Shown: positions 5,286 through 28,421, counted from the stretch's first letter. The stretch: 64,000 nt of DNA from Clostridium sp. CAG:343 (GCA_000431335.1 FR888054.1:96307-160306), one strand, 5' to 3'. A program made the numbers and translations. Notes: generated by a model from the sequence alone, not told the origin.

Positions 5286-5300
5286 CCTTCGGGTTATGAG
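5286..5300. repeat. 15-bp direct-repeat core (attL-like), identical to 28407..28421
   Basis: Exact match. The sequence is the reverse complement of a tRNA-Met anticodon loop plus 3' stem (ctcataacccgaagg). Confidence 0.55.
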
Positions 5301-5418
5301 CGAGGTTTAACCGATTTTTGTGAGTTTGTGAAAATTAGAGTTTTTGTTGGTATATTGATATTTACAAGAGTTTTAACTTATAGAACATTTGTGCATTTTT
5401 AGGGCATTTTTGGAGAAG

Positions 5419-5440
5419 ATTTTACCCAATTTTTACCCAA
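5419..5440. repeat. arm-type tandem repeat attttacccaatttttacccaa (candidate integrase arm-binding site)
   Basis: The identical 22-mer recurs at 28260..28281, and both copies lie just inside the island ends. Confidence 0.45.
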
Positions 5441-5527
5441 TGGGTATGGTACGTTTGTTCTTAGGAATTTGGCTCTTGTGATAGCTATTTTTATTGAGAA
5501 AAATTTTAATTTTGGAGGTAAATTTTT

Positions 5528-5821
5528 ATGAGTAATTTAAGAGAAGTTAATGATGATATTTTAAAGGATTGGTTAGATTTTAGAGAGGATGCTATTGCTT
5601 CGTTAGGTTGTGCAGAGGATAAAAAGCATTGGATTTATTTTGATGAGATTTCTGAGAGGATTTTGAAGAATGTTCCTGATCAGAATAGAAAGTATGTTGA
5701 GAAACAACTAAAACAGCTTGATGATAATTTCTTTGATTATATTTGCTATTGGAATGAGAAGTATTATAGGAATGGATTTTGTGATGGTTCTCAATTAGTT
5801 ATGGGATGTTTTTCTAATTAA
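5528..5821 (+). CDS. hypothetical small protein (97 aa)
   Basis: Clean ORF with RBS GGAGGT. A degenerate copy of its 3' end is found at 9990..10045. Confidence 0.4.
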   Translation: MSNLREVNDDILKDWLDFREDAIASLGCAEDKKHWIYFDEISERILKNVPDQNRKYVEKQLKQLDDNFFDYICYWNEKYYRNGFCDGSQLVMGCFSN

Positions 5822-5852
5822 GAATACCAGGAAAATAATTTTCCTGGTATTC
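5822..5852. terminator. bidirectional rho-independent terminator hairpin (gaataccagga/tcctggtattc)
   Basis: Perfect 11-bp inverted repeat lying between convergent genes. Confidence 0.5.
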
Positions 5853-5876
5853 CTATATTTATTCTCATATTATTTC

Positions 5877-8800
5877 TTAATCTACTTTAATTTCATTTTT
5901 CAATTCGTAATTGTCTATTTTCATTATTAAATAATTAAATCCATTTATTGAAAAATCTTCTCCTTGTTTTCCTCTTTTTAAGCTTTGACCTACTGGAGCT
6001 TCTGGCGAAATTTTATTGTATCCAATTTTTCTTAATTCTTCTATTTCTGATTCATATATATATAATTTTAATGTTTCATTTTGATCCTCACTATATAATT
6101 CATATAATTTTACTTCATCTATTGTTTGTTTTATATACTTATTGTTTTCACTTTTTATTTCTTCAATTTGTTTATCCATCTTTTTTATATTTAAAGTTGC
6201 ATCTTCTATATCATATTTACTTTCAATTTGTCCTAAAAAATAATCTTCAATAAATTGCCATCTTTCATCATCATTTTTTAATTGAGTAAAGAAATATGTC
6301 ATATAACAAACTGAATCATAATGTAATTTTTGAATTGTCGTTAATGTTCTGCTTTTATATGAATGATTATCTAATACTTTTTGTATAGTTTCTTCACTGT
6401 TTACACGAACAAAAAATTCTAAACTATTTCCTCTTTCAAATGTATATGATGTTAAGTCAAGTAATTCTAATATTTGTGCAGCAATTAATATTGGATCAGA
6501 TCTCATCTTTTTATTATCATCTTTATTAGTATTTATTACTAATATAGTTTCATTATTGTCCTTACATGACTTAAGCATATTTTCTATTGAATTTTTAATA
6601 TGATTTATAGTTCTATCATAATATGCTGAAACAATATGATATCTATTAGTTTTTGAATTATAATCACAAAACTTATATTTTCCAGCTGTATAGTTAAAAT
6701 CGTAAGAAATTAACAAACTAAGTAGTGGTTCAATTAGGTTATTTACTTTTGTTTTACTATTATTAATTCCCTTTTTTATAATTAATTCTGCTATTTCATT
6801 TGAATTATAATGTTTATTTGACATTTTCATGTCATCTAATACACTTTTTATAACATTTAACCATTGTATTGCTTTTATTTCTACATCTCCAAAATCATTT
6901 AATTTTGCAGATAATTTTAATAAAGTTCTATCACTAAAACATGTTCTGTCTATTTGTGGTAATTCCCCTAAGTAAAATTTTCTTTTAAAATTACCAAATG
7001 TTAATCCATCATATTTACCATTATAATGTTCTAACCAACATTGTTTAAAATCAAAAACATATAAATCTCCCGTATATTTAGTCTTTACATCAGATACGTC
7101 CATTTTTTCTAATTGTTTTCTATCATATTTTAATTCTAAATACTTTTTCCAACCATATTGTTCAATGATAGGCATTTTTGAATCTGAAATAAAAAATAAT
7201 CCTTTAGTAAACATACTTCTTGGTTTAAATACTAAAGGCACATAATTTGACATACTTTTAAAATCTCTCTTTATTGCTATAATTGTTGCCTTTAATTTAT
7301 TTTCTATTTCATCATCGTTTGTTGCTTGAAACACATGTGCAAATTCATCTGTAGAAACCAAAAAATTTCTTCTATTTCCAGTCTTATATTTATATAAGAT
7401 TTTCATAAGAACACCAATAATATTGTAAACTGTAATTTGAGACATTCCTTCTAATTTATTAATATATCTGAAATCTTCTTTGTAAAAATCTGTAGATGCA
7501 ATTCCTTTCATTCCAGGCTTTCTTGCCGCTCTTCCAATCTCTTGAACATAATCTGCTAAGTTTCCTGTAGGTGCAAAGTGATAAACATTTTTTATATCTT
7601 CAATATCAATTCCCATGCCAAAAGCTTTTGTTGCTAAAATTATATTCTTATTTCCTTTTCTTATATCTTCAAGTGCCTCGTCTTTGTCTATCTTATCCAT
7701 TTTTCCATGATATATAGCAACTTCATTGTCTGAAAAATTACTAGCTATATTATTTAAAGATTTTATTGTTGGAAAATATACTAGTGTTTTTTCATTATAG
7801 TTTTCAGAATAATCCCTAATTCTTTTAATTACTATTTCATCCTTTTCTTCTTTATATGCACGATCCTTTAAATGATTATATATATTAAAACTTATATCAT
7901 TTCTTTTTATCGCTCCAAAAAAGGTATCACAAGTTAAATTCAAACTCTCAACTATATCATGATACATATCTTCTGTTCCATTGCTAATAGTTGCTGTAGC
8001 TGTAAAAGTTGCAATTGGAAAAATATGTTTTGTTTTATGTCTTAATTTATCTAAATAATCTCCTAAATACCAATAATCCGGTCTAAAATTTTTTCCCCAA
8101 GTAGAAACAGTATGAGCTTCATCCACCACTAATAATCCAATTTGTCTATCTCCTATAAATGTTTCTATGTCTGCATTACTTAATAAAGTTTCAGGAGATA
8201 TATATAAGATAGAAATTTTCTTTTCTTTAATATCTTCTATAATTTTTTCCTTTTCTATTGGTGTAAATTCTGAATTTATAGTTGCTGCACAATTAGTTAA
8301 TACTTTTATATTATTCACTTGATCTTTCATTAGTCCTATTAATGGTGATATTACTATAGTTAATAATTCATTCTTTTCAGCCGCAACTATTGCAGGTATT
8401 TGGAATAAAATTGATTTACCGGCACCTGTTGGTGCTGTCACAAAAATATCTTTAAAACTTTCATTGTTTTGCGCTCTTAAAATGTTTTGATATATTGTAT
8501 CTATAATAATACTTTGATCTACATCTTCCATTTCATTACTATTAAATGGATCTTTATACATTGGGATTTTTCTAAAATTGTATTCAGAATTTTTTCTTTT
8601 TAAAACTTCTAAATATACATTATATAAATCCGGTACAACATCCCTTTTTTTTCTTTTTTCTTCTATAATATTTATCCCCATATAATTAAGAATAAATAAG
8701 AATTTTTTTATATATTTTTCATCTTTTCCTTCAATTTGAATAAATTTAATAGTATTATATTTCCCATCTAATATTTCATTAAAAACTTGAATAAACTCTT

Positions 8801-9386
8801 CTGAAGTCGAATTATCAAATAACTCTGTTTCTTTTACTATATCTAATTTTTTATTTTCATAGTACTCTGAATACCTTCTGATTAACTTTACAAACATTTC
8901 GGATATTTCATTTTCAAATTTATTATAAGAAATAACTAAATTTCCATTTCTAATTTCCATACTAGTATATATTTTCTGTAGCATGTTACTTTGAGTCGTT
9001 TCTTCTTCAAATTTTTTTATTATATTTTTCAAATTTTCACTTTGAATACCTGGATAGTAATAATCAAAACAACCTATATCTATTATTTTTATTTTATATC
9101 CTGAAGCTTGAACTAATCCATATAAATTCTTCTTTTCAACATAAATTATTTCTTCATATAAACACCAATAAATATTCTTTGAACTTAATTTGATGAAATT
9201 ATCTTTCATAAACGCTTCATCATCTACATAAAAAATATTCATCAAGTCTTTAATTATTCCTAAATCAAATATATGCTCACATTTTAAGTTGATTCTTTTA
9301 ATTATAGAATCAAAACCTTTTAACACATATATAGTTTTTTCTTCGTTAACTATCTTAGAAATTTCATCTTCAATCATCTTCAACAT
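5877..9386 (-). CDS. large RecQ-family SF2 helicase (1169 aa) with uncharacterised N- and C-terminal extensions
   Basis: Motif I TAPTGAGKS. Motif II VVDEAHTVSTWGKNFRPDY mirrors the RecQ signature DEAHC.S.WGHDFRP. Motif V/VI GMGIDIEDI...YVQEIGRAARKPG. About 300 aa N-terminal and 350 aa C-terminal have no recognised domain. Confidence 0.7.
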   Translation of the reverse strand: MLKMIEDEISKIVNEEKTIYVLKGFDSIIKRINLKCEHIFDLGIIKDLMNIFYVDDEAFMKDNFIKLSSKNIYWCLYEEIIYVEKKNLYGLVQASGYKIKIIDIGCFDYYYPGIQSENLKNIIKKFEEETTQSNMLQKIYTSMEIRNGNLVISYNKFENEISEMFVKLIRRYSEYYENKKLDIVKETELFDNSTSEEFIQVFNEILDGKYNTIKFIQIEGKDEKYIKKFLFILNYMGINIIEEKRKKRDVVPDLYNVYLEVLKRKNSEYNFRKIPMYKDPFNSNEMEDVDQSIIIDTIYQNILRAQNNESFKDIFVTAPTGAGKSILFQIPAIVAAEKNELLTIVISPLIGLMKDQVNNIKVLTNCAATINSEFTPIEKEKIIEDIKEKKISILYISPETLLSNADIETFIGDRQIGLLVVDEAHTVSTWGKNFRPDYWYLGDYLDKLRHKTKHIFPIATFTATATISNGTEDMYHDIVESLNLTCDTFFGAIKRNDISFNIYNHLKDRAYKEEKDEIVIKRIRDYSENYNEKTLVYFPTIKSLNNIASNFSDNEVAIYHGKMDKIDKDEALEDIRKGNKNIILATKAFGMGIDIEDIKNVYHFAPTGNLADYVQEIGRAARKPGMKGIASTDFYKEDFRYINKLEGMSQITVYNIIGVLMKILYKYKTGNRRNFLVSTDEFAHVFQATNDDEIENKLKATIIAIKRDFKSMSNYVPLVFKPRSMFTKGLFFISDSKMPIIEQYGWKKYLELKYDRKQLEKMDVSDVKTKYTGDLYVFDFKQCWLEHYNGKYDGLTFGNFKRKFYLGELPQIDRTCFSDRTLLKLSAKLNDFGDVEIKAIQWLNVIKSVLDDMKMSNKHYNSNEIAELIIKKGINNSKTKVNNLIEPLLSLLISYDFNYTAGKYKFCDYNSKTNRYHIVSAYYDRTINHIKNSIENMLKSCKDNNETILVINTNKDDNKKMRSDPILIAAQILELLDLTSYTFERGNSLEFFVRVNSEETIQKVLDNHSYKSRTLTTIQKLHYDSVCYMTYFFTQLKNDDERWQFIEDYFLGQIESKYDIEDATLNIKKMDKQIEEIKSENNKYIKQTIDEVKLYELYSEDQNETLKLYIYESEIEELRKIGYNKISPEAPVGQSLKRGKQGEDFSINGFNYLIMKIDNYELKNEIKVD

Positions 9387-9989
9387 TTTACTAACACCTC
9401 TTTTTTTACAATTAAAGTTTATTTATTTCTTCTATTTTAAATGTTTTAATTTTCTACATTATATCACAAAGTATTAATATGAAAAAGATCAATTATAAAA
9501 CTATTTATCTTTTAATAATACTTTTTTCAACTTAAAATTTCATCATCATAAATAACATTATTGCTTCTTGTATTGTTTTAACAATTTTGATTTTAATCTT
9601 ATTCTATCATAAACAAAAATTACAAGTATAAATTTACTCCCAACTCATTCTCGATGAAAGTCAAATAAATTAATAAATTTTAAATTATACATTTAAAATT
9701 TAACTTACAACTTTTAAGGTATAAAAGTCAACTGAATACTTACGTTTGAAATTGTAAATTTCATAAGAAATCTGCTATAATTTTTAATATAATACTAAAG
9801 ATTTTATTCTAAAAAATGCACCAACAATTATTAAAAAATTTGCTACTATTTTTTATTTTTTTTAATTTGTTATGAATAAAGAAAACATTGGATTAATTTT
9901 GATAAAATTATTGAATTTATTAAGCGAATTTTTCTAAACGAAATAAAATATATGTAAAAAATCAATTAGGTAAACTTCACAAAAATTTT

Positions 9990-10045
9990 ATGTATTATAT
10001 TTGTTATTGAAATGAGAAGTATTATAGATTTAAATTTTGTTATGT
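9990..10045 (+). repeat. degenerate duplicate of the 3' end of gene 5528..5821 inside a 730-bp non-coding AT-rich tract
   Basis: tattatatttgttattgaaatgagaagtattatag here matches gattatatttgctattggaatgagaagtattatag at 5741..5775. Confidence 0.4.
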
Positions 10046-10076
10046 TTTTCAGCTAGTTATTGCTTTAATATATAGT

Positions 10077-10113: not shown

Positions 10114-11010
10114 TTAAACTTCTAATGTTCCTATATAATAGTCATAACTGTTTGATTTATATTTGTCCTTTAAAAACGAAACTGAGTAATCTTTATTAGA
10201 AACATATATATGTACATTTTTAGATTCACATTCAAATGTTATGTCTCCTGCTGAATTCTGAGTTATTGTATTATAATTACTATAATAGTTCAAGCTATTT
10301 GATGGAGCTTCCCCTATTATTATTATTTTTGGATTTATCTTGTCTAATATTTCTTTTGGAATTTTACCAGATTCTCTACCATGATGTGGAGCAAAAATAA
10401 TATCCGCTTCTTCTATCTCCAAATCATCTTTTATATTCTCCATAAAGTCCTTTTCTAAATCCCCAAACCATAATACTTTAACTCCATCTTCTAAACTATA
10501 CTTGATAATTGGTGATATATTATTAGGACTCTCTCCCTCTTTTGCATTTTCTAATGCATTTTTAAAATATTGATTATTTGTATTTGGCCATAATATATTT
10601 ATACCAGAAGATCCTCTTTCAAATCCAGAATCATCTTTTCCTTCTCTATTCATCCATTTTCTACTGCAACCCTCGTATAAATAAAAATGTTTATTTCCAT
10701 CTCTTAAAGAACAATATTCCTCAAAATCTTCTGTTTTATCTTTTTTTGTTGCTTTGTTTTCCACACAATAAAAATTATTTATACCAACTTTTTCTCTATA
10801 TCTTTTTAATCCCATGATGTGATCTTCATCTGGATGAGTAGAAATGAACCTAGTAATTCCTTTATTTTTAGATTTATCAATTATTTCATCTATAATTTTA
10901 TCCTCATTATCTTCATGCATATAACAGTCAATTACTGTAAAATTATCTGAACCATGTTTAATATAAAACATATCTCCATTTCCAACTGAAAACGATTTTA
11001 TGATACTCAT
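10114..11010 (-). CDS. MBL-fold metallo-hydrolase
   Basis: HPDEDH (HxHxDH) motif with downstream His/Asp ligands (APHHG). Confidence 0.6.
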   Translation of the reverse strand: MSIIKSFSVGNGDMFYIKHGSDNFTVIDCYMHEDNEDKIIDEIIDKSKNKGITRFISTHPDEDHIMGLKRYREKVGINNFYCVENKATKKDKTEDFEEYCSLRDGNKHFYLYEGCSRKWMNREGKDDSGFERGSSGINILWPNTNNQYFKNALENAKEGESPNNISPIIKYSLEDGVKVLWFGDLEKDFMENIKDDLEIEEADIIFAPHHGRESGKIPKEILDKINPKIIIIGEAPSNSLNYYSNYNTITQNSAGDITFECESKNVHIYVSNKDYSVSFLKDKYKSNSYDYYIGTLEV

Positions 11011-11597
11011 TTTTTTTCCTCCTTTTTATTTATTTTTTCTACTACTATTTGACTAACAAAATCTTTAGACTTTAGCCTGCATGATATAACCCCAATTATA
11101 TATGCAATTGTTATAGCTATTAGCTCTTTCCAGAAATAACTTGTCCATATTATAGTTAATACTATAAATACAATAACAAAAATAAATATTAAGAAAACAA
11201 TATCTCTTATAATACAATATTCAGCATTCTTACTTTCAACTATATTATTTTTTTCAACTGGTTTATAATAATCTCTGTAAAATATAAAATTAGGAATATT
11301 ATTCAATTCTTTTATCTTATAATTGTTCTTATCAATTCTTTTGTCATTTTTTATATATTCTTTTGCTTTCTCAAAAGGTGTTTTTTTATAAAAAATACCT
11401 AGTGCTATCCTTTGTTTTTTATTTCTATCAAACATTGATAGAAACAATAATGTAAAAACTAATAGTATTGCATCTATCGGCCATATTTCACTTATTAAAT
11501 TTGGGTAAATCACATTCAAGTTTAAAATAATATGATGACTGATTGCTATAATTAAAGTATATAACAAAATATACCTTTTCTCAAAACTTATTTCCAT
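11007..11597 (-). CDS. 4-TM membrane protein, translationally coupled to the MBL-fold gene
   Basis: Two N-terminal and two C-terminal hydrophobic helices. Its stop overlaps the start of the MBL gene by 4 nt. Confidence 0.4.
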   Translation of the reverse strand: MEISFEKRYILLYTLIIAISHHIILNLNVIYPNLISEIWPIDAILLVFTLLFLSMFDRNKKQRIALGIFYKKTPFEKAKEYIKNDKRIDKNNYKIKELNNIPNFIFYRDYYKPVEKNNIVESKNAEYCIIRDIVFLIFIFVIVFIVLTIIWTSYFWKELIAITIAYIIGVISCRLKSKDFVSQIVVEKINKKEEKK

Positions 11598-11690: not shown

Positions 11691-12335
11691 TTATTCTAAA
11701 TATTCTTTTAATCCATCAATTATTTTATACACTTTGGTCATTGGATTTTTTCGTGATGCTTGTCCATCTTTATTTAATTCTTCCATATATTCGCAATTCT
11801 TTATTGCTGTATGTAGCCTTTCTTCACTTGTAGCTTTTTCAAAAATGTTTGTATCGTTTTTAGTATATTCCCCTAAACCTTTTTTCTGAAATTCTTTACT
11901 TAATTCTTGTAATACATTGTCCTTTGAAATATACCTATTTACTTTCTTAAAATGTGATAATAACCACAATTCAAAATTAGGATTAGACCAAGCCACATTA
12001 TAATCACAGGTTTTAATTGCTTTATCAAATTGTTCATCTGAGTAATCATCTTTATCAAACACAACCCAAACTTGTCCATATCTTTTATTTGAATAATTTA
12101 CAAATTTATCTGTATATTTTACTAAAGCTGTGGTATTTTCACCTGTTCCTTTTATTTCAATATTAGGAATTAATACATCAACTTTGCTTCCATACTTTTC
12201 ATTTATCTTTTTCTTTAATCCATTAAAATAATTGGGTTCAGTTTGCTTCCCTTCACATACAATTAAGTAATTAGCTGGTGCAAGCCTCTTACTTTTTAAT
12301 CTGTCTTTTCTTGATATATTTCTATTATTCTTCAT
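11691..12335 (-). CDS. RloB-like (Toprim-like) protein, AbiLii-like
   Basis: N-terminus LIVCEGKQTEPNYF is the hallmark of the RloB family. It overlaps the upstream ATPase gene by 11 nt. Confidence 0.6.
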   Translation of the reverse strand: MKNNRNISRKDRLKSKRLAPANYLIVCEGKQTEPNYFNGLKKKINEKYGSKVDVLIPNIEIKGTGENTTALVKYTDKFVNYSNKRYGQVWVVFDKDDYSDEQFDKAIKTCDYNVAWSNPNFELWLLSHFKKVNRYISKDNVLQELSKEFQKKGLGEYTKNDTNIFEKATSEERLHTAIKNCEYMEELNKDGQASRKNPMTKVYKIIDGLKEYLE

Positions 12336-13557
12336 GTATTATATCAAATTCTTCCAATACTGGAATAGCACCATACCTTCCAGTTAAATAGTCTTTATTG
12401 TATGTTGCATCATTTCTTACTTTTTTACCTGCATTTTTATCATCTTCTAATATATAATCAGATAATGCATATATTTCTGAAATTCCATCTTTGTCTTTTT
12501 CTGCAAACCATATTTCATCTCTTCTAAATGTTTCTTTATTTAAGTTTACCGTATCATGTGTTGAATATATTAACTGTCCATTTCCTATATTGGTCAGACT
12601 ATTATGAAACAAGTTAATAATATATCTAGTTAATAGTGGATGTAATTTTGCATCTAATTCATCAACAAATAATACCATTCCATTTTTTAATGCATCCATA
12701 AAGAAATCAAATAAGTGAAACATTTTTCTCGTACCATTAGATTCTAAATAAAATGGCAATGCTTTTAACTTTCCATTTTCTCCCCTGTGAAGAACTTCAA
12801 TATCTATAATACCATTATTATTTTTAACAGCTTCTATTGAATCTGGTGTAGTTTTTATTCCTTCAATTCCAGAATCAAATGTCTTTATAAATTTTAATAA
12901 TTCTTTTTTATAAATTTCATCGCTTAGTATTTTTAATGAAACTCTGTTATTAATAAATCTTTCAAAATTTGGATTACCTAAGTCTAAATACATGCTATTC
13001 ACAAACCAGTCATATACATTGCTAAAATCCTCATTATTTCTATCTATTTTGCTATATATATTTAAGAATAATGTTCTTTCATCTATATTCACTAAATCTG
13101 AAATTTTATTAGGTTTCATTGATACATTGTTATTTTCTCTTTCGAAAATAACATAGAATTTATTTACCCTTTTCTCAAATAACCATTCTGAAATAATTGT
13201 ATCCTTTAAAACTTCAAAACCATATTTATATATTTTATTATTTTTAGCTAATATTTCTACTTCTAAAGCTATTGGATCATTATTTATCATAAAACTATAA
13301 ATATTTTCTTCATCTATTGGAGAATTCTTTTTAGAGTCATCACTTACCAATATTCTTTTTTTCATATAGTCAAAAGCTTGTAACACATTAGTTTTTCCAC
13401 TAGCATTGGCACCATAAATTGCAGATACTTTCAAATATTCACCATTTTCTGTTTTAGCCACATTATATTCATGTTCTTTTAATGATGTTGCTTCCATATC
13501 TAAACAATTTTCATTTTTAAAAGATTTGAAATTTTTAAAACTAAATCTTATTAACAT
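12325..13557 (-). CDS. AAA ATPase (AAA_21/AAA_15 ABC-like), AbiLi-like
   Basis: Walker A GANASGKTN, a split ABC-type ATPase layout, and Walker B LFVDELD. Confidence 0.6.
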   Translation of the reverse strand: MLIRFSFKNFKSFKNENCLDMEATSLKEHEYNVAKTENGEYLKVSAIYGANASGKTNVLQAFDYMKKRILVSDDSKKNSPIDEENIYSFMINNDPIALEVEILAKNNKIYKYGFEVLKDTIISEWLFEKRVNKFYVIFERENNNVSMKPNKISDLVNIDERTLFLNIYSKIDRNNEDFSNVYDWFVNSMYLDLGNPNFERFINNRVSLKILSDEIYKKELLKFIKTFDSGIEGIKTTPDSIEAVKNNNGIIDIEVLHRGENGKLKALPFYLESNGTRKMFHLFDFFMDALKNGMVLFVDELDAKLHPLLTRYIINLFHNSLTNIGNGQLIYSTHDTVNLNKETFRRDEIWFAEKDKDGISEIYALSDYILEDDKNAGKKVRNDATYNKDYLTGRYGAIPVLEEFDIIHEE

Positions 13558-19032: not shown

Positions 19033-19042
19033 AATTATATCT

Positions 19043-19360: not shown

Positions 19361-19460
19361 ATTATCATTTCCTTTAATATACATTTAATCTATTATACTT
19401 TATATCATAAAACGACTTTTTTCTCAATAGTTTTATTATATTTGTGTTTGATTGTTGTAA

Positions 19461-20135
19461 CTAATTTTTATGAAAAAAATGATCATATGGATAACCTGCT
19501 TTAATATATAACTCCGTTAACTCCATTTTATATTTCTCCAATAACTCTAAATACTTTTGCTTAAAAACATTTTTACAAATCCATTCAACTCCTTTTCTTG
19601 AAATAATAACTTTATTATTATCTAAATATTTATAATTACTAAATCCATTATCACACATTTTTTTAATTGCTTTTCTTATACTAGATTCTGCTCTATTAAA
19701 GTATTTTTCTAGTTGTTTTATGTCCATATCTTCATTCCACCAATTTTCATTATGCTCTACTTTTAAAAAATCTTCATACAATTTAATTCTGGTTTCAAAA
19801 AATTCTACATCAGCATCTATTAAAGATTTTTCTTTTTCAAAATACACAAATTTTATCCAGTCATACCCTTCTACTAAAATAAAATATTTTCTACTTCTTA
19901 CTTTTTCACTTCTCCATCTACAAGTTGGATGTTTTTTCAACATAACATCTACTGCTTTTCTTAAATCTACATGCTTTACTTCTTTACCATGTTTTGTTGT
20001 TATTCCTAATAGTTGTAATCTTTTTAAAATTTTATTATATGATAAAAAAATACTATCCAAAATTTGTTCTGAATCTCTCCACATTTTCACCACTTCCTTG
20101 CTATAAAAATTTATTAATGCTAGTTTACGAAGCAT
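19461..20135 (-). CDS. hypothetical protein
   Basis: ORF only. It may be the first gene of the MazG operon. Confidence 0.3.
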   Translation of the reverse strand: MLRKLALINFYSKEVVKMWRDSEQILDSIFLSYNKILKRLQLLGITTKHGKEVKHVDLRKAVDVMLKKHPTCRWRSEKVRSRKYFILVEGYDWIKFVYFEKEKSLIDADVEFFETRIKLYEDFLKVEHNENWWNEDMDIKQLEKYFNRAESSIRKAIKKMCDNGFSNYKYLDNNKVIISRKGVEWICKNVFKQKYLELLEKYKMELTELYIKAGYPYDHFFHKN

Positions 20136-20155
20136 TAATAATTAGCAAAATTTAT

Positions 20156-20418: not shown

Positions 20419-21255
20419 TTAGTCGCTTATGCTAGCTTTTTCTTTTTGATTTTTATCATCTTCTTTTAGTTCAATTCCATAACACATTCTATATAATTTT
20501 TGAATAATAGCATTGGATAATTCTTTATCATTACTCTGATAAAATCTATGTAATAAACTTTCCTTATTAAATCTAGTTGTTATTATAATTGGTAGTTTAT
20601 TTTCATTTCTATTTTCTATAATTGTATATAATTTATCTAGAGCCCACTGGCTTATTTTTTCTGTTCCTAAATCATCTATTACAACCATATCTGTATTTGA
20701 AAATAATTCTATTAATTCATTTTCTGACTTTGAATTATCTTTAAAAGTTTCTTTGATCATATCTAACAATGATGATAACCTCCCCATCAACACTATTTTA
20801 TCTTCTTTAATTAATTCATTTGAAATTGATGCTGCTAAATGTGTTTTTCCTACGCCTGTATTTCCAGTAATAATAAGTCCATTTTCTTGTTTGTTTTCGG
20901 TACATTTTTTAGTATAATCTTTTGCTATTTCAACTTCATTTTTATTAGAATCTGTTACTTTAAAATTGTTAAAATTATAATCCTTTAGTCTTTTACTAAT
21001 GTAATTTTGCGAATAAAACTGATTGATAATTTCCCTATAATGTTCATTCTTTTTCTGCTCTTGAACTTCTAAATCAATTCCTTTCCAAAATTCAACAGAT
21101 TCCTTACAAGTACATCTTTCATATTCAATGGAATCTGGAGATATATTAGTATATAAATAATCTAAGCCTATTGGTTTTAATTCTTTTCCACAAAATTTGC
21201 ATTTATTGTGAAAATTCTTTTGATAATTATTACATTTTGTATTCTCTAAATCCAT
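20419..21255 (-). CDS. DnaC/IstB-like AAA+ helicase loader with N-terminal Cys-rich zinc-finger
   Basis: Walker A GNTGVGKTHLA and Walker B VVIDDLGTE. The N-terminus has C..C...C.C. Confidence 0.6.
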   Translation of the reverse strand: MDLENTKCNNYQKNFHNKCKFCGKELKPIGLDYLYTNISPDSIEYERCTCKESVEFWKGIDLEVQEQKKNEHYREIINQFYSQNYISKRLKDYNFNNFKVTDSNKNEVEIAKDYTKKCTENKQENGLIITGNTGVGKTHLAASISNELIKEDKIVLMGRLSSLLDMIKETFKDNSKSENELIELFSNTDMVVIDDLGTEKISQWALDKLYTIIENRNENKLPIIITTRFNKESLLHRFYQSNDKELSNAIIQKLYRMCYGIELKEDDKNQKEKASISD

Positions 21256-21745
21256 TTATATTCTCATTCTCCTTTCTGTTATTTTCTATAATTTCTTCTA
21301 ATGTATTATCTTCTTGTGCGTTATTTTCCGTTATTGTAACGTTACTTTTTTCTTTTTCACTTTTCAATCTTTCACGATATTTTTGTTGTCTTATTCTATT
21401 TTGTTCTTTATATTTTTCGGATGATTCAATACTTTGGTATTCATCCCAATTCTTAATTTTGTATGCTCCTTCTTCTACAATTATCATATTTAATTCTTGA
21501 AATCTTTTAATAATTTTCTCAATCTTTTTCTTAGACTTTCCCATAATCTTAAAAAAATCTTCTATTGTCATTGGTTTATTATCTCCTATTACTAATTTAC
21601 CGTTGCAATTACATTCTATAGCAATAGTCAATAATTGAATCCATACTCTAAAATATGTATCTCCATCTTGTTCTTTTAGTAATATTTGAATTTTTCTGTT
21701 TGAAAATATTTTAATTTCAATTTTTAACCATTGTAAATTATACAT
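21230..21745 (-). CDS. phage replisome organizer N-terminal domain protein (DnaD-like)
   Basis: W.K....F...K...L......G...YF.VW..LL..A pattern at the N-terminus. It overlaps the DnaC-like gene. Confidence 0.5.
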   Translation of the reverse strand: MYNLQWLKIEIKIFSNRKIQILLKEQDGDTYFRVWIQLLTIAIECNCNGKLVIGDNKPMTIEDFFKIMGKSKKKIEKIIKRFQELNMIIVEEGAYKIKNWDEYQSIESSEKYKEQNRIRQQKYRERLKSEKEKSNVTITENNAQEDNTLEEIIENNRKENENINGFREYKM

Positions 21746-21773
21746 ATCCTCCTTTCCTCACTTTCCCTATAAT

Positions 21774-21971
21774 CTAGCTAATAGATTGTTGTTCCATATT
21801 TTCTAAATATTCATCTAGTGCTTGTACTCTAAATAAATATTTTCCACCAACTTTTGAGCATGGTATTTGCTTTCTTCTTACTAATTGATTGACTAACCAA
21901 TAAGATATTCCTAAATACTCTGCTGCTTCTTTCATTGTTAGTGTAGTTCTTTGAACTTTTTGTAATTCCAT
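21774..21971 (-). CDS. excisionase-family (MerR-like) HTH DNA-binding protein
   Basis: MKEAAEYLGIS...VNQLVRRKQIP..KVGGKYLF is the typical Xis/AlpA HTH. Confidence 0.5.
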   Translation of the reverse strand: MELQKVQRTTLTMKEAAEYLGISYWLVNQLVRRKQIPCSKVGGKYLFRVQALDEYLENMEQQSIS

Positions 21972-22246: not shown

Positions 22247-23338
22247 GTGTTAAGAGAAAATAACATTCCAGTTAAAAATAGTTTTAATATATGGTTTAAT
22301 AGAGAAAAAAGAAAAGAGTTTTATACAACTTCTATAATTTTGTATAAAACTGCCTTTAATCATAATCCTAATAATAAATTTTCTAACATTATTCTTAAAC
22401 CAAATGAAGCTACTAACAAAATCTACTTTACTTCGGCTAATTTTAATGCCCCTTTTGAAGAAAGCTATGGTACATTATTAATTAGATTTCTAAATAGCAA
22501 TTTTTCAACTTTTAAAACTGCTTATGATACTTTCTTTTGTTTTTATGGATTTTCAATATTAGAGGAATTTTATAAAAACATTCCTAAAGCACAATTATTT
22601 AAATCAAAAAAGGACTTTTTTAACACTTATGAACCAATTTTTATAAATATTAAACGTAAATTAAAAGAATTACAATATTTAATGAAAAGGTGTATTGATT
22701 ATATGTATAATCTAAATAACAATTTGGAGGATAAAAATTATTCTTCATTTGAAAAATATTTAACATATGTAATAAAGAATAATCTTTTTAGATATTCAAC
22801 AAATATTGATGTATTTTATTTTCAACAATTTGCACATGATACATTAAATATAGCTGTTGAATCTATCACACCAAAAATAGTGAGAGAGCATTTAGAAAAT
22901 GGAATAATAGATGTAAATGATAGTCCAGTTTTTCATGCATGTAATTTATCTAATATTCTATATGTATCATTGTCAGAAATTGCATCAAATAAGGATATAA
23001 AAATTAAGACTTGTAAAAATTGTGGCAAATACTTTATTCCAATTAAAAATACAGAAAAATATTGTGATATTACTTATTATGAAAATGAAAAAACTTGTAA
23101 AACAATTGGTGCTACTAATTCTTATACTAAAAAACGAAAAACTGTAGAAGGAATAAGATTTTATAGAAATAACTATCAAAGAAGGTTGATGCAAGCTAAA
23201 AGATCTAATAATCAGCAAATTGAATTTGCTTTTGAAAATTGGAAGAAACTCTCTAAGGTTAAGATTAAGGAATTTAATAATAATGAGATTTCTGAAGAAA
23301 AGTTAATTGAGTGGATGAAGAGAAATAAAAATATTTAG
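22247..23338 (+). CDS. hypothetical protein with C-terminal zinc-ribbon (CKNCGKYF...EKYCD)
   Basis: ORF with a plausible RBS GGAGGA. No recognisable catalytic domain. Confidence 0.35.
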   Translation: MLRENNIPVKNSFNIWFNREKRKEFYTTSIILYKTAFNHNPNNKFSNIILKPNEATNKIYFTSANFNAPFEESYGTLLIRFLNSNFSTFKTAYDTFFCFYGFSILEEFYKNIPKAQLFKSKKDFFNTYEPIFINIKRKLKELQYLMKRCIDYMYNLNNNLEDKNYSSFEKYLTYVIKNNLFRYSTNIDVFYFQQFAHDTLNIAVESITPKIVREHLENGIIDVNDSPVFHACNLSNILYVSLSEIASNKDIKIKTCKNCGKYFIPIKNTEKYCDITYYENEKTCKTIGATNSYTKKRKTVEGIRFYRNNYQRRLMQAKRSNNQQIEFAFENWKKLSKVKIKEFNNNEISEEKLIEWMKRNKNI

Positions 23339-23401
23339 ATTACAATTTTTGATTATGTATATAATTAAAAGAATGACAATTTTTAAGAGAGTATAGAAAA
23401 A

Positions 23402-24747
23402 GTTGTGTAAATAAATCCTTCCGTGATAAAATATAAAATATCAAGGAGGGATTTTTCTATGGGTAAAAAAATAGAAAAAGAAAAAAATGAAATAGTAGAG
23501 GAGTTTTTTAGAAGGAATGATCCAAAAAATATTAAATCCATGAATGATATGTACACAGCCTGGAAAGATTTCTTTGCCCCTGCTTTTCAACAATTGTTGG
23601 ATGCTGAAATGGAAGCAAAAATTGGTTATTCCAAAAACGAAAGAACAGATAATAATAATTATCGAAATGGATATTATCCAGAAAGAACTGTAGCAACAGA
23701 AATGGGAGATATTCCAGTAAAAGTTCCTAGAGATAGAAACGGAGAAATTGATTCCGATTTAGTGCCTAAATAATCAAGAACAGCAAATGGTTTTGATGAA
23801 AAAGTAATATCTATGTATGCATTAGGAATGTCTGATAGGGACATTCAGGAACAAATAAAGGAGATATTTGGCTGTAATCTTTCACCAGATATGATAAGTG
23901 ATATAACAGATAAAATTATACCTGAAATACAAGAATGGCAAAAAAGGAAATTAGAAAGTGTATACCCTATAGTATTTATTGATTCTACTCATTTTCATGT
24001 TAGAGATAATGGACAGATAGTAAAAAAAGCAACCTATGTTGTGTTAGGAATTGATAAAGATGGAATGAAAAAAGTTTTAACAATAACAATTGGAGAAAAT
24101 GAAAGTGCAAAATATTGGATGACTGTATTAAACGAACTTAAAAATCGCGGAGTACAAGATATTTTAGTATTATGTGCAGATGGATTGACAGGGCTTAAAG
24201 ATGCAATATCAGCAATATACCCTAAGACGGAATATCAAAGATGTATAGTGCATCAAATAAGGAACTCTTTAAAGTATGTACCATATACAGATAGAAAAGA
24301 ACTTGCTAATGATTTAAAAACAGTTTACAAAGCAAGTACAGAGGAATTAGGGTATACTAACTTATTAGAGTTGGAAGAAAAATGGAAACATAAATATCCT
24401 GGTGCGATTCAAAGTTGGATAGATAACTGGGATGTACTTTCAGTATTCTTTAAATTTTCTACTGAAATAAGAAAAATAATGTATACAACAAGTGCGATAG
24501 AGAGCTTAAATAGTACCTATAAACGAATAAATCGAAACAGAAATGTATTTATGTATGAAGGCAGAATATAAAATAAAGCCTAAAAATAATAGGCTTAAGA
24601 AGGATTTTTCTTAAGCCCTATTAAACTTACACAACTTTTTCTAAAATATTGATTTTTTAGAAAAATATTATTAAAATAATGTTAATAATAAAAATATTAA
24701 ATTTTTTTAAGTTATCAATCGGAAGGAAATCCGATTTACACAACATT
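23402..24747 (+). mobile_element. IS256-family insertion sequence remnant
   Basis: Terminal inverted repeats run from gttgtgtaaat..atccttcc at 23402..23424 to its reverse complement at 24721..24747. An extra IRR-like copy lies at 24626..24641. The interior encodes an IS256-type transposase. Confidence 0.6.
23423..24571 (+). pseudogene. IS256-family (Mutator-like) transposase, interrupted by an in-frame TAA at 23771..23773 and C-terminally truncated
   Basis: The two ORFs are in the same frame and separated only by a TAA where intact homologs have Gln/Arg (DLVPK*SRTANGFDEK). The protein ends about 30 aa short of family length. Confidence 0.65.
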
Positions 24748-24767
24748 TACGATACTCTCCTTTTGTC

Positions 24768-25508
24768 TTATATATTTTTATCCATCCAGTCTACTTCATT
24801 AGGATATATAATATCTGCAAAATATGCATTTTCATTATAATCATATTTAAACCATCCTTTTATTTCTTGCTCATCTTTATTTTTCATGTCTTCAATCATA
24901 ACATTAATAAAATTGTCATAAGTCATTTTTGAATATGCAATAATATTTTTCCCATTTCTACCTGCCACATTAGCTAAATTACATGCTTTTACTACTGCAT
25001 TTCCAATCCAAATTTTATCATTTATTCCAGACCCTTTTTTTCCTGCTTTTACAATTAAATCTTGTCCAACAGATACTCCAATTCCCACTCTAATTTGTCT
25101 TAATTCTTCTCTTTGAAATAATTTATTTAGCATTTTAATACATGTGTTGATATATGCAGATATATCAACTAATTCATATATATCTTTTTGATACGGCGTA
25201 TTGTAAATTCCATACACACAATCACCCCTTATACCTATTTCTCTTACATTATTACTACTATTCATAATAGTAATTAACTCAGATGAAAAACTTCTCAAAA
25301 TTTTTGACACCTTAATATCTTCTTCTTTACCTATAATATCTGATGATTTGACAATATCTACGAAAATAGATCCAATCCATGATTTAATACCATTACTATA
25401 TGTAAATTCACTATCGTCTTTAGGAACATTTTTTTCTTCAATTTCCTCATTGTTTTTTAGAATTTCTTCAACTCTTTTTTTTCCTTCCTCAAAATTGTAA
25501 AATGCCAT
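24768..25508 (-). CDS. class III nucleotidyl cyclase (adenylate/guanylate cyclase fold), PycC-like
   Basis: Metal-binding motifs FVDIVKSS and IRGDCVYG (like F.DI.GFT and IGDCYM). RVGIGVSVGQ and WIGNAVVKACNLANVA match the RIGIH.G and WGD.VN.ASR signatures. Good RBS AGAGGGAG. Confidence 0.6.
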   Translation of the reverse strand: MAFYNFEEGKKRVEEILKNNEEIEEKNVPKDDSEFTYSNGIKSWIGSIFVDIVKSSDIIGKEEDIKVSKILRSFSSELITIMNSSNNVREIGIRGDCVYGIYNTPYQKDIYELVDISAYINTCIKMLNKLFQREELRQIRVGIGVSVGQDLIVKAGKKGSGINDKIWIGNAVVKACNLANVAGRNGKNIIAYSKMTYDNFINVMIEDMKNKDEQEIKGWFKYDYNENAYFADIIYPNEVDWMDKNI

Positions 25509-25521
25509 AATTTTTCTCCCT

Positions 25522-26106
25522 CTATATTATCTTAAAAATTTTTACTATAAATAATAGTATTATAGTTATCATAGCCATATTTAGTCCAATATTATAATTT
25601 TTAAATTTTTTATTGCATATTTTACTATTTATATATACTTGTGAAAGTATATCATTTATATTGCTCTGTTTTGTTTGATTTTTTATTTTTTTGTTAAATT
25701 CTTCATAATTATATTTAGAAATACTTCCATAAAACACTAATGAATTTAGTGTTACCCCTGATTCTTTAAATTCTTTAATATTGATTTTTCCTTTTAGAGC
25801 ATATATTAATTTTATTATTGAAAAAATTGTATTAAAATAAAGTAATAACACCAATAGTCCTTTTGCTATTTTGGAAAAACTTAGACTGTTATTGTTTATA
25901 GTTGTTACTATTCTTTCGATAAAGTCAATATTTGAATCTATTAATATATATCCTAAAACAACTCCCATAAATGCAATAAGTATTGATATCTTTATATCCA
26001 CATTATTAATCCATTCTTTTATATTATCCAAGATATATTTCGCATTTTCAATTTTTTCTCCATATTCTTTTTCTTTATTTTCTGTTGACATCCTTATATT
26101 CTCCAT
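25522..26106 (-). CDS. 3-TM membrane protein (candidate PycTM-like effector)
   Basis: Three predicted hydrophobic helices. It lies immediately upstream of the cyclase on the same strand with a 13-nt gap. Confidence 0.4.
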   Translation of the reverse strand: MENIRMSTENKEKEYGEKIENAKYILDNIKEWINNVDIKISILIAFMGVVLGYILIDSNIDFIERIVTTINNNSLSFSKIAKGLLVLLLYFNTIFSIIKLIYALKGKINIKEFKESGVTLNSLVFYGSISKYNYEEFNKKIKNQTKQSNINDILSQVYINSKICNKKFKNYNIGLNMAMITIILLFIVKIFKII

Positions 26107-26662
26107 TCTGTATATTAGATATTAAAATTTTGTTAAAACTTTGCATTTCATCATAATCCAATACATTACCATATTGTTTTCCACATTTTGGGCAAACATA
26201 TTGTTCCGTTCCAAAATGTCTATTTCCTATTTGCCATTTTTCATCTAGCTGGCATCCACATTCGCATATAGGTATAAAGTTACATAGTGTGTACTTGCCA
26301 TTATAATCTTTTTCATATTGCCATCTAAATTTTACTCTACCTTTATATTTGTCTTCATTATATTTTAGAAAATCTGGTTCTTCTATTTTTTCTTGTTCAT
26401 TTATAATTTTCACATATATAGTTAATATAAGTATTAATGCTATATCTATTATAATATAACCCCCTATAGCTACTTTTATATTTAAAAAATTCCAAATAAT
26501 TTTTATTAATTCCCAAATTTTCTGTCCCAAAAATTTTAATATATTAAACTGCGTAATTTGTTCTACTATAAAATTTGCAATAATTGTACTTATCACTCCT
26601 AGTATGCTTTGTCCAATTAATGACTTAAAAAATTGTTTTATCTTTTTCATTTCTATCTCCAT
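26075..26662 (-). CDS. membrane protein with C-terminal zinc-ribbon (CECGC...CPKCG)
   Basis: Two or three N-terminal TM helices and a C-terminal 4-Cys ribbon. It overlaps the downstream TM gene. Confidence 0.4.
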   Translation of the reverse strand: MEIEMKKIKQFFKSLIGQSILGVISTIIANFIVEQITQFNILKFLGQKIWELIKIIWNFLNIKVAIGGYIIIDIALILILTIYVKIINEQEKIEEPDFLKYNEDKYKGRVKFRWQYEKDYNGKYTLCNFIPICECGCQLDEKWQIGNRHFGTEQYVCPKCGKQYGNVLDYDEMQSFNKILISNIQNGEYKDVNRK

Positions 26663-26909
26663 TTAATCTAATTACTTTGACTCATTATATCATCTTTCTA
26701 GTGTTTTTTCCATATAAATTACAAATTATTACATTTCTTCTAGTATTTTTATGTTTCTTATATATCTTTTTATGAATTTTAGTGTACTCTTTGAAACAGG
26801 CATAAAATAGCTAAAAAAGGCTGGTAATTTTTCTAAAAATAATATATAATACCATAAAATACATACTCCTCCCACCCATAGGCATACTTGAAAGGAGGTG
26901 AAATAAGTA

Positions 26910-28103
26910 ATGGCTGGGAGTATAGAAAAAAGAGGAAAAAATAGTTACAGGCTAACAGTATCTGAAGGATTTGACTTAAATGGAAACCCAATGATACATA
27001 GAAAGACAGTACATGGAACTAAAAAAGATGCAGAAGTTGAACTAGCTAAATTTGTTACTGAAGTACAAAATGGCTTAGTAGTTGATGGTAAATCTCTTAA
27101 ATTTTCTGAATTTACTGAAATATGGAAACGAGATTATGGCTCAAAAGAGCTTGCGCCTTCTACATATAAACGTTATTGTAGAATGTTAGAAACAAGACTT
27201 TTACCATACTTTGGTCATTTCTACATTAATAAAATTAGACCAACTGACATTATGAAGTTTTATGATTTACTTGAAAAAGATACTCAGTTAGTTAGAAAAA
27301 AAGGTAACAATGGTACAAAAACTAAAAAGCCTTTGTCTGGTAAAACAATTTTAGAACATCATAGGTTACTTCGTGCAATGCTACACAGAGCAGTTTATTG
27401 GCAACTTATTGTTAGTAATCCTGCTGAACGTGTTCAAGCTCCTAGAGCAAAAAAGCCAAAAAGAAGATCTTATGATGATGAGCAAACTAAAATATTACTA
27501 GAAAATTTAGAGCAACTTTCTATAGAAGATACTAAATATAAAGTTGCAATCATTCTAACGGTTTTCACAGGCGTTCGTTTAGGTGAACTAATGGGATTAG
27601 AATGGCAAGATATTGATTTTAAAAATGGAATTATTAGTATTAATCGTTCTAGTCAGTATCTATCAGATATGGGAGTCTTTACAAAAGTTCCAAAAACAGA
27701 AAGTTCCATTAGAGAGATTGCAATACCCGAATTTATCATTTCTTTACTTGAGGAATATAAGTTATGGTATGAAGAACAAAAATCGATTTATAACGAATTG
27801 TGGAACGATTCTAATAGGTTATTTGTACAAGCAGATGGCAAACCAATGCATCCTTCTACCATTAGCAAATGGTTTGTAAAATATGTTGGTCAAATAGGTT
27901 TACCTGTAATTAATTTTCACGGATTAAGACATACAAATGCAAGTTTACTAGTTGCACAGAATATTGATATAGCAATAATTTCTGCGAGACTTGGTCATGC
28001 ACAAATAAGTACTACACTTAATTTTTATGTGCATCCACTACTTTCTCATAACAGAAAAGCTGGATATGCACTAGAAAACTTATTATTACCAACAAGGTCT
28101 TAA
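26910..28103 (+). CDS. int: tyrosine recombinase / phage-type integrase
   Basis: N-terminal AP2-like arm-binding segment. The C-terminal catalytic motifs R...HGLRHT...Y(HPLLSH..R) are present. It sits at the right end of island A. Confidence 0.8.
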   Translation: MAGSIEKRGKNSYRLTVSEGFDLNGNPMIHRKTVHGTKKDAEVELAKFVTEVQNGLVVDGKSLKFSEFTEIWKRDYGSKELAPSTYKRYCRMLETRLLPYFGHFYINKIRPTDIMKFYDLLEKDTQLVRKKGNNGTKTKKPLSGKTILEHHRLLRAMLHRAVYWQLIVSNPAERVQAPRAKKPKRRSYDDEQTKILLENLEQLSIEDTKYKVAIILTVFTGVRLGELMGLEWQDIDFKNGIISINRSSQYLSDMGVFTKVPKTESSIREIAIPEFIISLLEEYKLWYEEQKSIYNELWNDSNRLFVQADGKPMHPSTISKWFVKYVGQIGLPVINFHGLRHTNASLLVAQNIDIAIISARLGHAQISTTLNFYVHPLLSHNRKAGYALENLLLPTRS

Positions 28104-28259
28104 TTTAAACTTTTTTCTAATTTTCACAAATTACAAATTTTCACGATAAAAAATAAAAGGCAACTAAATATTTTTAGATTTCCCATTGCCTTTTATTATA
28201 TATAAAAAGTATAAATTTTTGATGAATTTTTATTGATATTTATGGCTTTTTAGGAGATT

Positions 28260-28281
28260 ATTTTACCCAATTTTTACCCAA
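28260..28281. repeat. arm-type tandem repeat attttacccaatttttacccaa (second copy)
   Basis: Identical to 5419..5440 and located between int and the right core repeat. Confidence 0.45.
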
Positions 28282-28376
28282 ATCAACATAATAATGCTTA
28301 AAAATAGCATTATCGCAACCAATTTTTAGGCATAAAAAAATCACTAAAACCGTTACAGTTCTAATGATATATGGTT

Positions 28377-28421
28377 TGGTTGCGGGGGTAAGACTCGAAC
28401 TTACGACCTTCGGGTTATGAG
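28377..28421 (-). other. partial tRNA-Met, 3' 45 nt (anticodon loop to CCA), att remnant
   Basis: The reverse complement reads ctcataacccgaaggtcgtaagttcgagtcttacccccgcaacca, closely matching the 3' half of the intact tRNA at 33009..33084. No 5' half is present. Confidence 0.55.
28407..28421. repeat. 15-bp direct-repeat core (attR-like)
   Basis: Exact copy of 5286..5300. Confidence 0.55.

Follow-up and report, generated by a model that had tools for sequence, protein, structure and literature searches.

Several described systems come close to the locus considered here. The Islander catalogue holds anticodon-centred (class A) islands, which target tRNA genes by means of tyrosine integrases (PMC4383910; Williams 2002 cited there) and whose textbook layout is a regenerated tRNA together with a displaced 3' fragment of the tRNA gene (tDNA). 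Mobile backbones with exchangeable anti-phage systems, mobilisable elements with replication modules and phages integrating at tRNA genes share further traits with it. We analysed a stretch of 64,000 nucleotides from Clostridium sp. CAG:343 (GCA_000431335.1, FR888054.1:96307-160306), called the window below, in which an earlier note had proposed an integrase-bearing defence island at positions 5286-28421. This segment is very probably one integrated copy of a site-specific integrative island that works by the steps proposed in the last section. The kind of island, a tRNA-targeting integrative defence island, is known, whereas the family appears undescribed: we found no prior description of it, nothing in the literature on its DUF6076 protein, and no phage or plasmid match.

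Like class A islands, the element has its integrase inside, carries in its attP site a 3' piece of the tDNA beginning with the anticodon loop, and occurs in tandem arrays. At its primary site, seen on another contig (ERZ19243357 NODE_1, loci L107 and L021; such L numbers are our own handles), the tRNA is regenerated at the int end, with the displaced 3' fragment opposite. Unlike them, it occupies in the window an attB made up of just the loop and 3' stem (15 nt), and its int-proximal junction is not a tRNA, either in the window or in 48 of 70 species. The window copy has the internal tyrosine integrase, the tDNA fragment in attP, and direct repeats whose single-copy counterpart is the empty site; it departs from the strict Islander signature in having no regenerated tDNA, which the same island does have on ERZ19243357 NODE_1.

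A mobile backbone with slots in which anti-phage systems are swapped, and a cargo that differs from strain to strain at the same chromosomal site, are shared with the P2-prophage and P4-satellite hotspots and the integrase-associated islands of E. coli (PMC9122126, PMC10121019). In contrast to these, the host belongs to uncultured low-GC gut Clostridia and the backbone contains replisome organiser and DnaC-like genes, DUF6076 and a 97-aa gene; unlike P4-like satellites, the island yielded neither capsid-hijacking nor packaging genes and is at most a putative satellite. With Tn6104 and streptococcal integrative mobilisable elements (IMEs) it shares integrase, excisionase, replisome organiser plus DnaC and adaptive cargo, and some relatives at the same attB have a relaxase; the island itself has none, and Tn6104 and related IMEs use serine integrases and target genes of integrative and conjugative elements, not tRNA (PMC5704250).

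The tyrosine integrase, the short core overlapping a tRNA gene, the junction without rebuilding and the secondary attB recall the tRNA-dependent lysogeny of mycobacteriophages (PMC10865867), in whose manner a different element, at L014, splits tRNA-fMet. Unlike the mycobacteriophage case, the island carries a restoring 3' fragment, rebuilds the tRNA at its primary site and has no full replacement tRNA gene. Finally, as in the Tn916 family, Xis (matching Tn916-Xis above the Pfam threshold) is accompanied by an Int with a short N-terminal domain, and direct-repeat, putative arm sites lie ~120-150 bp from the crossover in both arms. The target, however, is a specific 15-nt core, not AT-rich bent DNA with variable coupling sequences, and there is no conjugation module.

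Ends of the island and its movement between hosts

The island measures 23,136 bp between the outer ends of its repeats. The 15-mer CCTTCGGGTTATGAG is found exactly, on the + strand, at 5286-5300 and 28407-28421, with ~0.01 chance matches expected at up to 2 mismatches. The window has just two other near-copies at that threshold, each with 1 mismatch and on the minus strand, one inside the tRNA-fMet gene at 33009-33084 and one in that tRNA's displaced 3' fragment at ~42894-42941. Inside the ends, the 22-mer ATTTTACCCAATTTTTACCCAA is exact at 5419-5440 and 28260-28281 (0.00 chance matches expected) and has no further copy in the window at up to 3 mismatches; its 10-mer unit TTTTACCCAA stands at four positions in the window, all within these two tandem motifs, and around the motifs the two arms resemble each other along 58 nt (81% identity, 5383-5440 against 28224-28281).

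The 15-nt core is the reverse complement of CTCATAA (the anticodon loop) followed by CCCGA (the 3' anticodon stem) and AGG. The right copy belongs to a longer segment, 28377-28421, that reads in reverse complement as CTCATAACCCGAAGGTCGTAAGTTCGAGTCTTACCCCCGCAACCA. These 45 nt make up the 3' part of an initiator tRNA-Met, reaching from the anticodon loop to the terminal CCA; the intact 76-nt tRNA that the same island forms at locus L016 has an identical 3' part. Neither ARAGORN nor Rfam finds a tRNA at either window junction, and the single tRNA that Rfam reports in the window is at 33009. All coordinates given in the earlier note were correct: the exact 15-mer pair, the 45-nt tRNA fragment, the 22-bp motif just inside each end, the tyrosine integrase gene and the lack of an intact tRNA at either junction were each recovered as described there. 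It could be argued that neither the 15-mer pair nor the 22-mer pair bounds anything and that both are due to chance or to dispersed repeats, for which the AT-rich, low-complexity background, and nothing more, speaks. We consider the probability of this negligible in view of the expected numbers of matches given above and of the comparative data, which confirm the boundaries.

Four comparative lines agree that these are the ends of a mobile element. First, exact-protein look-ups of the left flank gene CBAH (bile-salt hydrolase, 4223-5197) led to ten long contigs of the same species that carry different islands; in these the flank is conserved up to the 15-mer, the content beyond it is wholly different, and each island begins at the 15-mer. 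Cargo at the same site in those strains includes type IIG/IIL restriction, GmrSD, KAP NTPases, Hachiman, RnlAB and others. The other islands keep the position of the arm motif, with a type-specific sequence.

Second, an empty site with one 15-mer, which the earlier note had proposed to look for, exists. A pattern made of both window flanks with a free gap between them was run against metagenome contigs and found one, from the human gut (L025), which reads ...cccgcatgtgat-CTCATAACCCGAAGG-cattaatcaataataaaaagc..., that is, the TehB-like flank, a single core and the CBAH flank. With the CBAH side of the core given as cattaatcaataat, the two window flanks are here joined by one core. The CBAH-TehB spacer of L020 and L024, considered as an orthologous empty site, was too diverged for alignment.

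Third, with the integrase and the 97-aa left-end gene as queries, the same island was recovered in at least 4 other chromosomal contexts, at 99.7-100% DNA identity (blastn). Fourth, the blastn alignments stop exactly at 5286/5287 and 28421, with flanks that are unalignable or ~80% identical. The border between island and flank falls exactly at the attL core in 10 strains and 4 host contexts, and at attR identity to every other host context stops exactly after ...GGGTTATGAG, while the P arm, including the island-borne 30-nt tRNA-fMet 3' rest at 28377-28406 (minus-strand sense), is 100% conserved across all host contexts. The reading of the repeats as island ends, made in the earlier note from the sequence alone, therefore holds.

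The right flank elsewhere is an intact tRNA-fMet beside comEA/PBP5/LytR (L016, L107), a non-tRNA junction (L017) or a tandem partner island (L018). The left flank is TehB-CBAH (L020, L024), HSP20/NUDIX/ComM/DprA (L021) or def/His-phosphatase/CBAH (L023). At L016 the host flank proteins are just 34-48% identical to their window orthologues; the presence of a near-identical island in hosts with such diverged flanks shows that it has been transferred recently between distantly related hosts. The exact integrase protein is found on 391 contigs, under the name 'integrase family protein [Clostridium sp. CAG:343]'.

An alternative would be that a prophage or island decayed here and became fixed: the repeats would then be relics, and the strains would resemble one another through vertical descent. 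The occupation of the site in all long contigs read for the two flanking genes (25 and 23), the inserted insertion sequence (IS) and the pseudogene copy of the end gene would agree with this. Such a remnant is nevertheless very improbable, because it would not account for near-identical DNA in at least four flank contexts whose own sequences are diverged, nor for the existence of an empty site, and because Int, Xis and both att sites are intact.

The tRNA-fMet gene and the non-tRNA site

The primary target of the island is tRNA-fMet, at its anticodon loop. On one 502-kb contig (ERZ19243357 NODE_1) L021 and L107 lie ~23.1 kb apart. L107, the int end, has an intact 76-nt tRNA-fMet, and L021, the other end, has a perfect 15-mer preceded by CAGTTTC-ATGGTAAGATTTGAATTTATGA, an AT-drifted tRNA 3' rest whose score is reached by none of 2000 shuffles. 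The rebuilding of an intact tRNA-fMet by the same island in both L016 and L107 bears out the tRNA origin that had been claimed for the repeat. At L021 the core is perfect while 7 of the 30 neighbouring tRNA positions have drifted, so that selection acting on the element may be what maintains the core.

In the window the situation is different. The empty site is without a tRNA, and nothing in the 36 nt on the outer side of either window core resembles a tRNA half (p ~0.5); the window copy therefore sits in a non-tRNA attB, in agreement with the earlier suggestion of a secondary or decayed integration site. This attB consists of the loop CTCATAA and CCCGAAGG, with no other tRNA sequence, and similarity to the 5' tRNA half was seen in 0 of 50 non-tRNA right flanks. 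The empty site and four different left junctions keep 14-15 of the 15 nt of the core and nothing else of the tRNA. It is possible that the window attB is a very old att relic.

Two junctions made by other elements help to place the crossover. In L013 the same attB is occupied by an island with a 55%-identical integrase, and the common sequence at the right junction is just CTCATAACCCG, which means that AAGG is chromosomal. At L014:16101-16140, in another strain of the same species, another element splits the species' own tRNA-fMet right after CTCATAA; ARAGORN finds no tRNA at this split site, and the gene is not restored at the junction. Both junctions place the crossover, whose exact cleavage points are putative, within the loop of 7 nt; the half-site that is conserved lies on the 3'-stem side, and the 5'-stem side is free to vary.

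The integrase family offers a wider view of these junctions. When one genome per species was scanned, at least 80 species proved to have the integrase (73-95% identity), nearly all of them uncultured gut 'Clostridia' or 'Clostridium sp. CAG' metagenome-assembled genomes (MAGs) of ~1.7 Mb. To our knowledge, this clade of gut bacteria has no cultured members; Clostridium sp. CAG:343 probably falls in the order TANB77 of GTDB. The core lies within 900 nt of int in 70 species, and the int-proximal junction is an intact tRNA-fMet in 16 of these, the left end of another family island in 6 and unrelated sequence in 48, so that non-tRNA junctions are the rule in the family and not the exception. The 30-nt tRNA 3' rest is kept without mismatch in 42 of the 70 core-bearing species and with at most 4 mismatches in 59.

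Among the 48 species with non-tRNA junctions, a tRNA-fMet of the same orientation follows after 5-9.5 kb in 4, which suggests tandem arrays with other elements. Another 5 (L044, L047, L057, L064, L069) resemble the window in that a tRNA-fMet on the other strand comes after variable genes spanning 3-4.7 kb; TehB/ASCH/NUDIX/AAA_18-type genes recur in these stretches in differing order. Int-mediated inversion is a possibility for this recurring inverted arrangement of the window and the five species. In the window itself, variable genes of 'house-cleaning' type (28422-33084) lead to a tRNA-fMet opposite in strand to the island's tRNA fragment, and the comEA/PBP5/LytR block is present further right. 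Together, the recurring variable genes and this block indicate that the region from CBAH to ~43 kb is a variable tract beside the tRNA-fMet locus. As an account of the oppositely oriented tRNA-fMet 4.6 kb away, Int-mediated inversion between inverted loops was considered for the window and set aside; it fits the right junction, not the left.

In most core-bearing species a tandem motif with an 11-bp period starts 139-147 nt before the core, a minority having it at 119-279 nt or having no tandem pair. The motif classes (TTTACCCAA, TTTTCCCAAC, TTCCCCAAC and others) track residues 15-31 of Int across ~65 species. This conserved distance and the covariation with the Int N-terminus favour the reading of the motifs as arm sites that was offered in the earlier note; they look like arm-type sites that would be bound by an N-terminal arm-binding domain.

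Backbone, cargo and relatives

Table 1. Positions of the features of the island in the window, from left to right, with the matches on which their assignment rests.
Feature	Position	Strand	Match or remark
attL core	5286..5300	+	left 15-nt identity segment
P' arm	5301..5527	+	tandem 11-bp-period motif, putatively arm-type, 5419-5440; wider similarity to P arm 5383-5440
97-aa left-end gene	5528..5821	+	conserved next to attL
1169-aa DEAD/Helicase_C protein, candidate defence helicase	5877..9386	-	Pfam DEAD, Helicase_C
decayed second copy of 97-aa gene	9862..10064	+	tblastn 52-60% identity; 135-nt direct repeat, 71% identity with 5668-5802
candidate PDC-M48-like two-gene system	10114..11597	-	metallo-beta-lactamase-fold protein 10114-11010; 196-aa partner 11007-11597
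AbiL-type abortive-infection pair	11691..13557	-	AbiLii/RloB 11691-12335; AbiLi AAA_21 ATPase 12325-13557
calcineurin-like phosphoesterase	13647-14408	-	Metallophos 2e-7; weak PDC-S10 match
267-aa protein	14433-15236	-	no match in profile searches
Mrr-type (type IV, modification-dependent) restriction endonuclease	15491..17059	-	Mrr_cat 7e-31, mREase_IV 2e-56
Schlafen-group-3-like helicase with N-terminal NERD-like region	17071-19032	-	SLFN-g3_helicase 1e-98; PDC-S41 and Nhi-like matches
MazG-like pyrophosphohydrolase	19043-19384	-	MazG-like 5e-20
winged helix-turn-helix (wHTH) backbone gene	19461..20135	-	207-224 aa, likely start gives 207 aa
DnaC/IstB-like helicase loader	20419-21255	-	IstB_IS21 9e-20, phrog_50 DnaC-like 4e-48
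phage-type replisome organiser	21230-21745	-	Phage_rep_org_N 1e-23
excisionase (Xis)	21774-21971	-	HTH_17 3e-13, TIGR01764 excisionase 4e-14, Tn916-Xis 23.4 bits (above threshold)
DUF6076 protein	22247..23338	+	divergent from xis-rep operon; C-terminal Cys4 zinc ribbon
IS256-family insertion sequence	23387..24759	+	in int-proximal cargo slot; Transposase_mut 5e-15, 7e-78
Pycsar system	24768..26662	-	cyclase PycC 24768-25508; effector PycTM 25522-26106; overlapping 195-aa open reading frame 26075-26662
tyrosine integrase	26910..28103	+	Phage_integrase 1e-25, SAM_3 2e-14, phrog_1 3e-76
P arm	28104..28406	+	tandem motif, putatively arm-type, 28260-28281 (extended 28224-28281)
attR core	28407..28421	+	right 15-nt identity segment

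The genes at 5528-5821, 19461-23338 and 26910-28103 constitute a conserved mobility and replication backbone and are not cargo (Table 1). In the family the gene order is likewise conserved, running from the wHTH protein (p207) through the DnaC-like loader, the replisome organiser, Xis, the divergent DUF6076 gene and a variable slot to Int; the 97-aa end gene also belongs to this backbone, which is conserved in ~60 species. Loader, replisome organiser and excisionase form one replication and excision operon (20419..21971, minus strand). The wHTH gene product is a predicted winged-helix DNA-binding protein, possibly with a role in partition or maintenance. The DUF6076 protein is a putative regulator and the best candidate for a switch. 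DUF1470 we take to be equivalent to the ABATE/CGNR zinc-finger class.

The 97-aa left-end gene has no family match in Pfam, PHROGs, NCBIfam or PADLOC. It adjoins attL in 9 of the 10 different islands at the window's site, and in other species homologues with 53-71% identity are found where tandem islands have their left ends. Upstream of the decayed inner copy of this gene (9862-10064), neither an att core nor an arm motif is left. That such an inner copy exists shows the island to be composite; its left 4.3 kb, with end gene and helicase, seems to have been accreted by fusion with the end of another island.

The cargo occupies two variable slots, one from DUF6076 to int and the other from the wHTH gene to the 97-aa end gene; the slot next to the 97-aa gene differs in content among L001-L010. 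In relatives the int-proximal slot measures 0.5-4.7 kb, and 89 open reading frames (ORFs) sampled from it match 309 PADLOC families. Both the Pycsar and the AbiL system are recognisable by gene content and arrangement: PycC (1e-79) and PycTM (4e-32) are adjacent on the same strand and also have Guanylate_cyc and PycTM Pfam matches, and AbiLi (3e-88) and AbiLii (2e-27), with Pfam matches to AAA_21 (1e-29) and RloB (5e-40), are encoded by overlapping ORFs.

The 1169-aa helicase matches the PADLOC family C3a193, a 'possible alternative Cas3' (2e-133), and is DpdF-like (1e-65). In the PDC-M48-like pair, the lactamase-fold protein matches PDC-M48B (5e-147) and Lactamase_B, and its 196-aa partner has no match. 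The pairing of a MazG-like protein with a Schlafen-like helicase (17071..19384) recurs in an otherwise different island at the same site (L010:3152-5357) and may represent a two-gene defence module. Three cargo ORFs are without match, and in backbone and cargo together four ORFs lack any match.

The IS256 element has 26-nt terminal inverted repeats (23387-23412 and 24734-24759) and a transposase split into two ORFs (23423-23773, 116 aa, and 23813-24571, 252 aa). The same IS is split in all copies seen in other hosts, indicating that it inserted before the island spread. The claim that the cargo consists almost entirely of candidate anti-phage and DNA-processing genes is supported by PADLOC and Pfam as far as those genes go, whereas 'almost entirely' is too strong, since about a third of the island is its own backbone and the IS.

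How an island of this make-up travels may be considered from two sides. As a phage satellite resembling phage-inducible chromosomal islands (PICIs), it would be induced by a helper, excised by Int and Xis, replicated from its own origin and packaged in helper capsids. Spread between genera without transfer genes would then be explained, and the defence cargo would shield host and satellite from competing phages. In keeping with this, the island combines int, xis and a replication module with a divergent putative regulator, is without conjugation genes, and has variable defence slots like those of P4-like satellites and PICIs (PMC9122126); moreover, one homologue of the wHTH backbone protein (P0262) is named in nr as coming from a Caudoviricetes MAG.

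Of the genes expected in a satellite, however, only integrase and excisionase were found. Pfam and PHROGs searches revealed, in any ORF, no packaging or capsid-interference gene (terS, cpm/ppi, sid/psu), no capsid-size redirection and no other hallmark, and no primase or helicase-primase, a replisome organiser and a DnaC-like loader being present instead. Megablast of the whole island had no match in 50,697 phage records; searches of IMG/VR yielded a single relative of Int, at 43% identity, and did not yield the attP junction; and 23 kb exceeds the typical PICI size. The DnaC-like protein is at most 31% identical to proteins of temperate Firmicute phages, and the wHTH protein has no phage match. 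We thus regard a satellite as conceivable but not probable.

An IME with an origin of transfer (oriT) alone, mobilised by a co-resident conjugative element, would also fit the integration and excision module (Int, Xis and att sites). Firmicute IMEs (Tn6104 and streptococcal elements) carry a maintenance module of replisome organiser plus DnaC (PMC5704250), the Xis is Tn916-like, and four other islands at the same attB (L002, L004, L005, L007; positions ~1-1000) carry a PF03432 relaxase with TnpV. These two genes may, on the other hand, derive from a nested Tn4451-like mobilisable transposon, which would offer a possible conjugative route to some members of the family. In the island itself no relaxase or coupling protein was found, with tools that do not recognise an oriT, and megablast of the whole island gave no plasmid match. 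An IME of this sort is therefore unlikely.

To the right of the island, the window contains a second one of ~9.9 kb (33009-42941), in an intact initiator tRNA-Met gene (33009-33084, + strand), with a 48-nt repeat (33037-33084) that recurs at 42894-42941 with one mismatch. Its integrase (41455-42741), at the far end, shares 24% identity with that of the first island, and its cargo comprises an ECF sigma factor, an HTH_36 protein and a Spo0A_C-type response regulator. The window encodes two response regulators with a Spo0A C-terminal domain (1919-2707, and 37813-38535 on the second island), and the small-genome host seems to carry several orphan Spo0A-like proteins. A 1943-aa ORF (47143-52974) lies between the PBP5-like (45886-47103) and comEA-like (53148-53852) genes, which are adjacent in the L016 host.

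Proposed working of the element and its meaning

With the above in mind, the following model may be proposed for the integrative island. Recombination by Int would join attP to a site in the chromosome where the 15-nt core is also present. The attP would consist of the P arm with its tandem arm-type site, the 45-nt tRNA-Met 3' copy, and the P' arm with the second tandem arm-type site. Strand exchange would take place within the 7-nt anticodon-loop sequence CTCATAA, and Int, guided by the sites of both arms, would accept any site that offers the loop and the 3' half-site. At tRNA-fMet, the island's own 3' copy would repair the gene; the window copy would have used the non-tRNA attB between the genes for a TehB-like methyltransferase and the bile-salt hydrolase.

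Excision, according to this model, would require Int and the Tn916-type Xis, with Xis directing. The excised circle can probably replicate, by means of the replisome organiser and the DnaC-like loader; maintenance of the circle by the wHTH Par-like protein is possible, and the DUF6076 zinc-ribbon protein may act as regulator. Spread between host genera may occur by hitch-hiking on a helper, through phage packaging or conjugative mobilisation, a helper being needed because the island encodes no relaxase, coupling protein, terminase or capsid gene.

Several points weigh against this model. The contig with the empty site (L025) is only 2.6 kb long and of low coverage, and it could represent an excision product and not a naive site. 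The attP junction ACTTACGACCTTCGGGTTATGAGCGAGGTTTAACCG, diagnostic of the circular form, had no match in IMG/VR, the one set searched. Relaxase, packaging, capsid and other transfer genes were not found in the island with Pfam and PHROGs, which makes the helper route a guess. Arm binding, the position of the overlap and replication are all deduced from sequence. Finally, an exact 15-mer at a non-tRNA site is much too improbable for a secondary site that arose by chance, since base composition predicts it only ~2e-4 times per 1.7-Mb genome.

The island is precisely delimited and evidently active; its att sites have been fixed exactly, and both an empty site and the tRNA that is its primary target are now defined. 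Near-identical copies in hosts that share only 34-48% identity in their flank proteins attest to recent long-range gene flow in the human gut, and the two cargo slots, several of whose genes here are without annotation, provide a ready catalogue for new defence systems. The compact set of attP, attB and Int could be tried as a genetic tool for these organisms. The minimal site of 15 nt and the many non-tRNA junctions also mean that tRNA-based island finders undercount such elements; an Islander-type search, for a tDNA and its cognate fragment in the same orientation, would miss the window copy.

In a wider sense, one may tentatively speculate, with more doubt than confidence, that these islands make up an undescribed and very widespread family of helper-dependent replicative elements. 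The family would be a main vehicle by which anti-phage systems pass from genus to genus among uncultured gut Clostridia with small genomes, and its integrase would need only a 15-nt 'half tRNA' site (loop and 3' stem), which is kept while the neighbouring tRNA sequence decays. If this is true, the use of half-tRNA sites would permit the colonisation of non-tRNA sites, the stacking of islands in arrays and the reshaping of the surroundings of tRNA-fMet.

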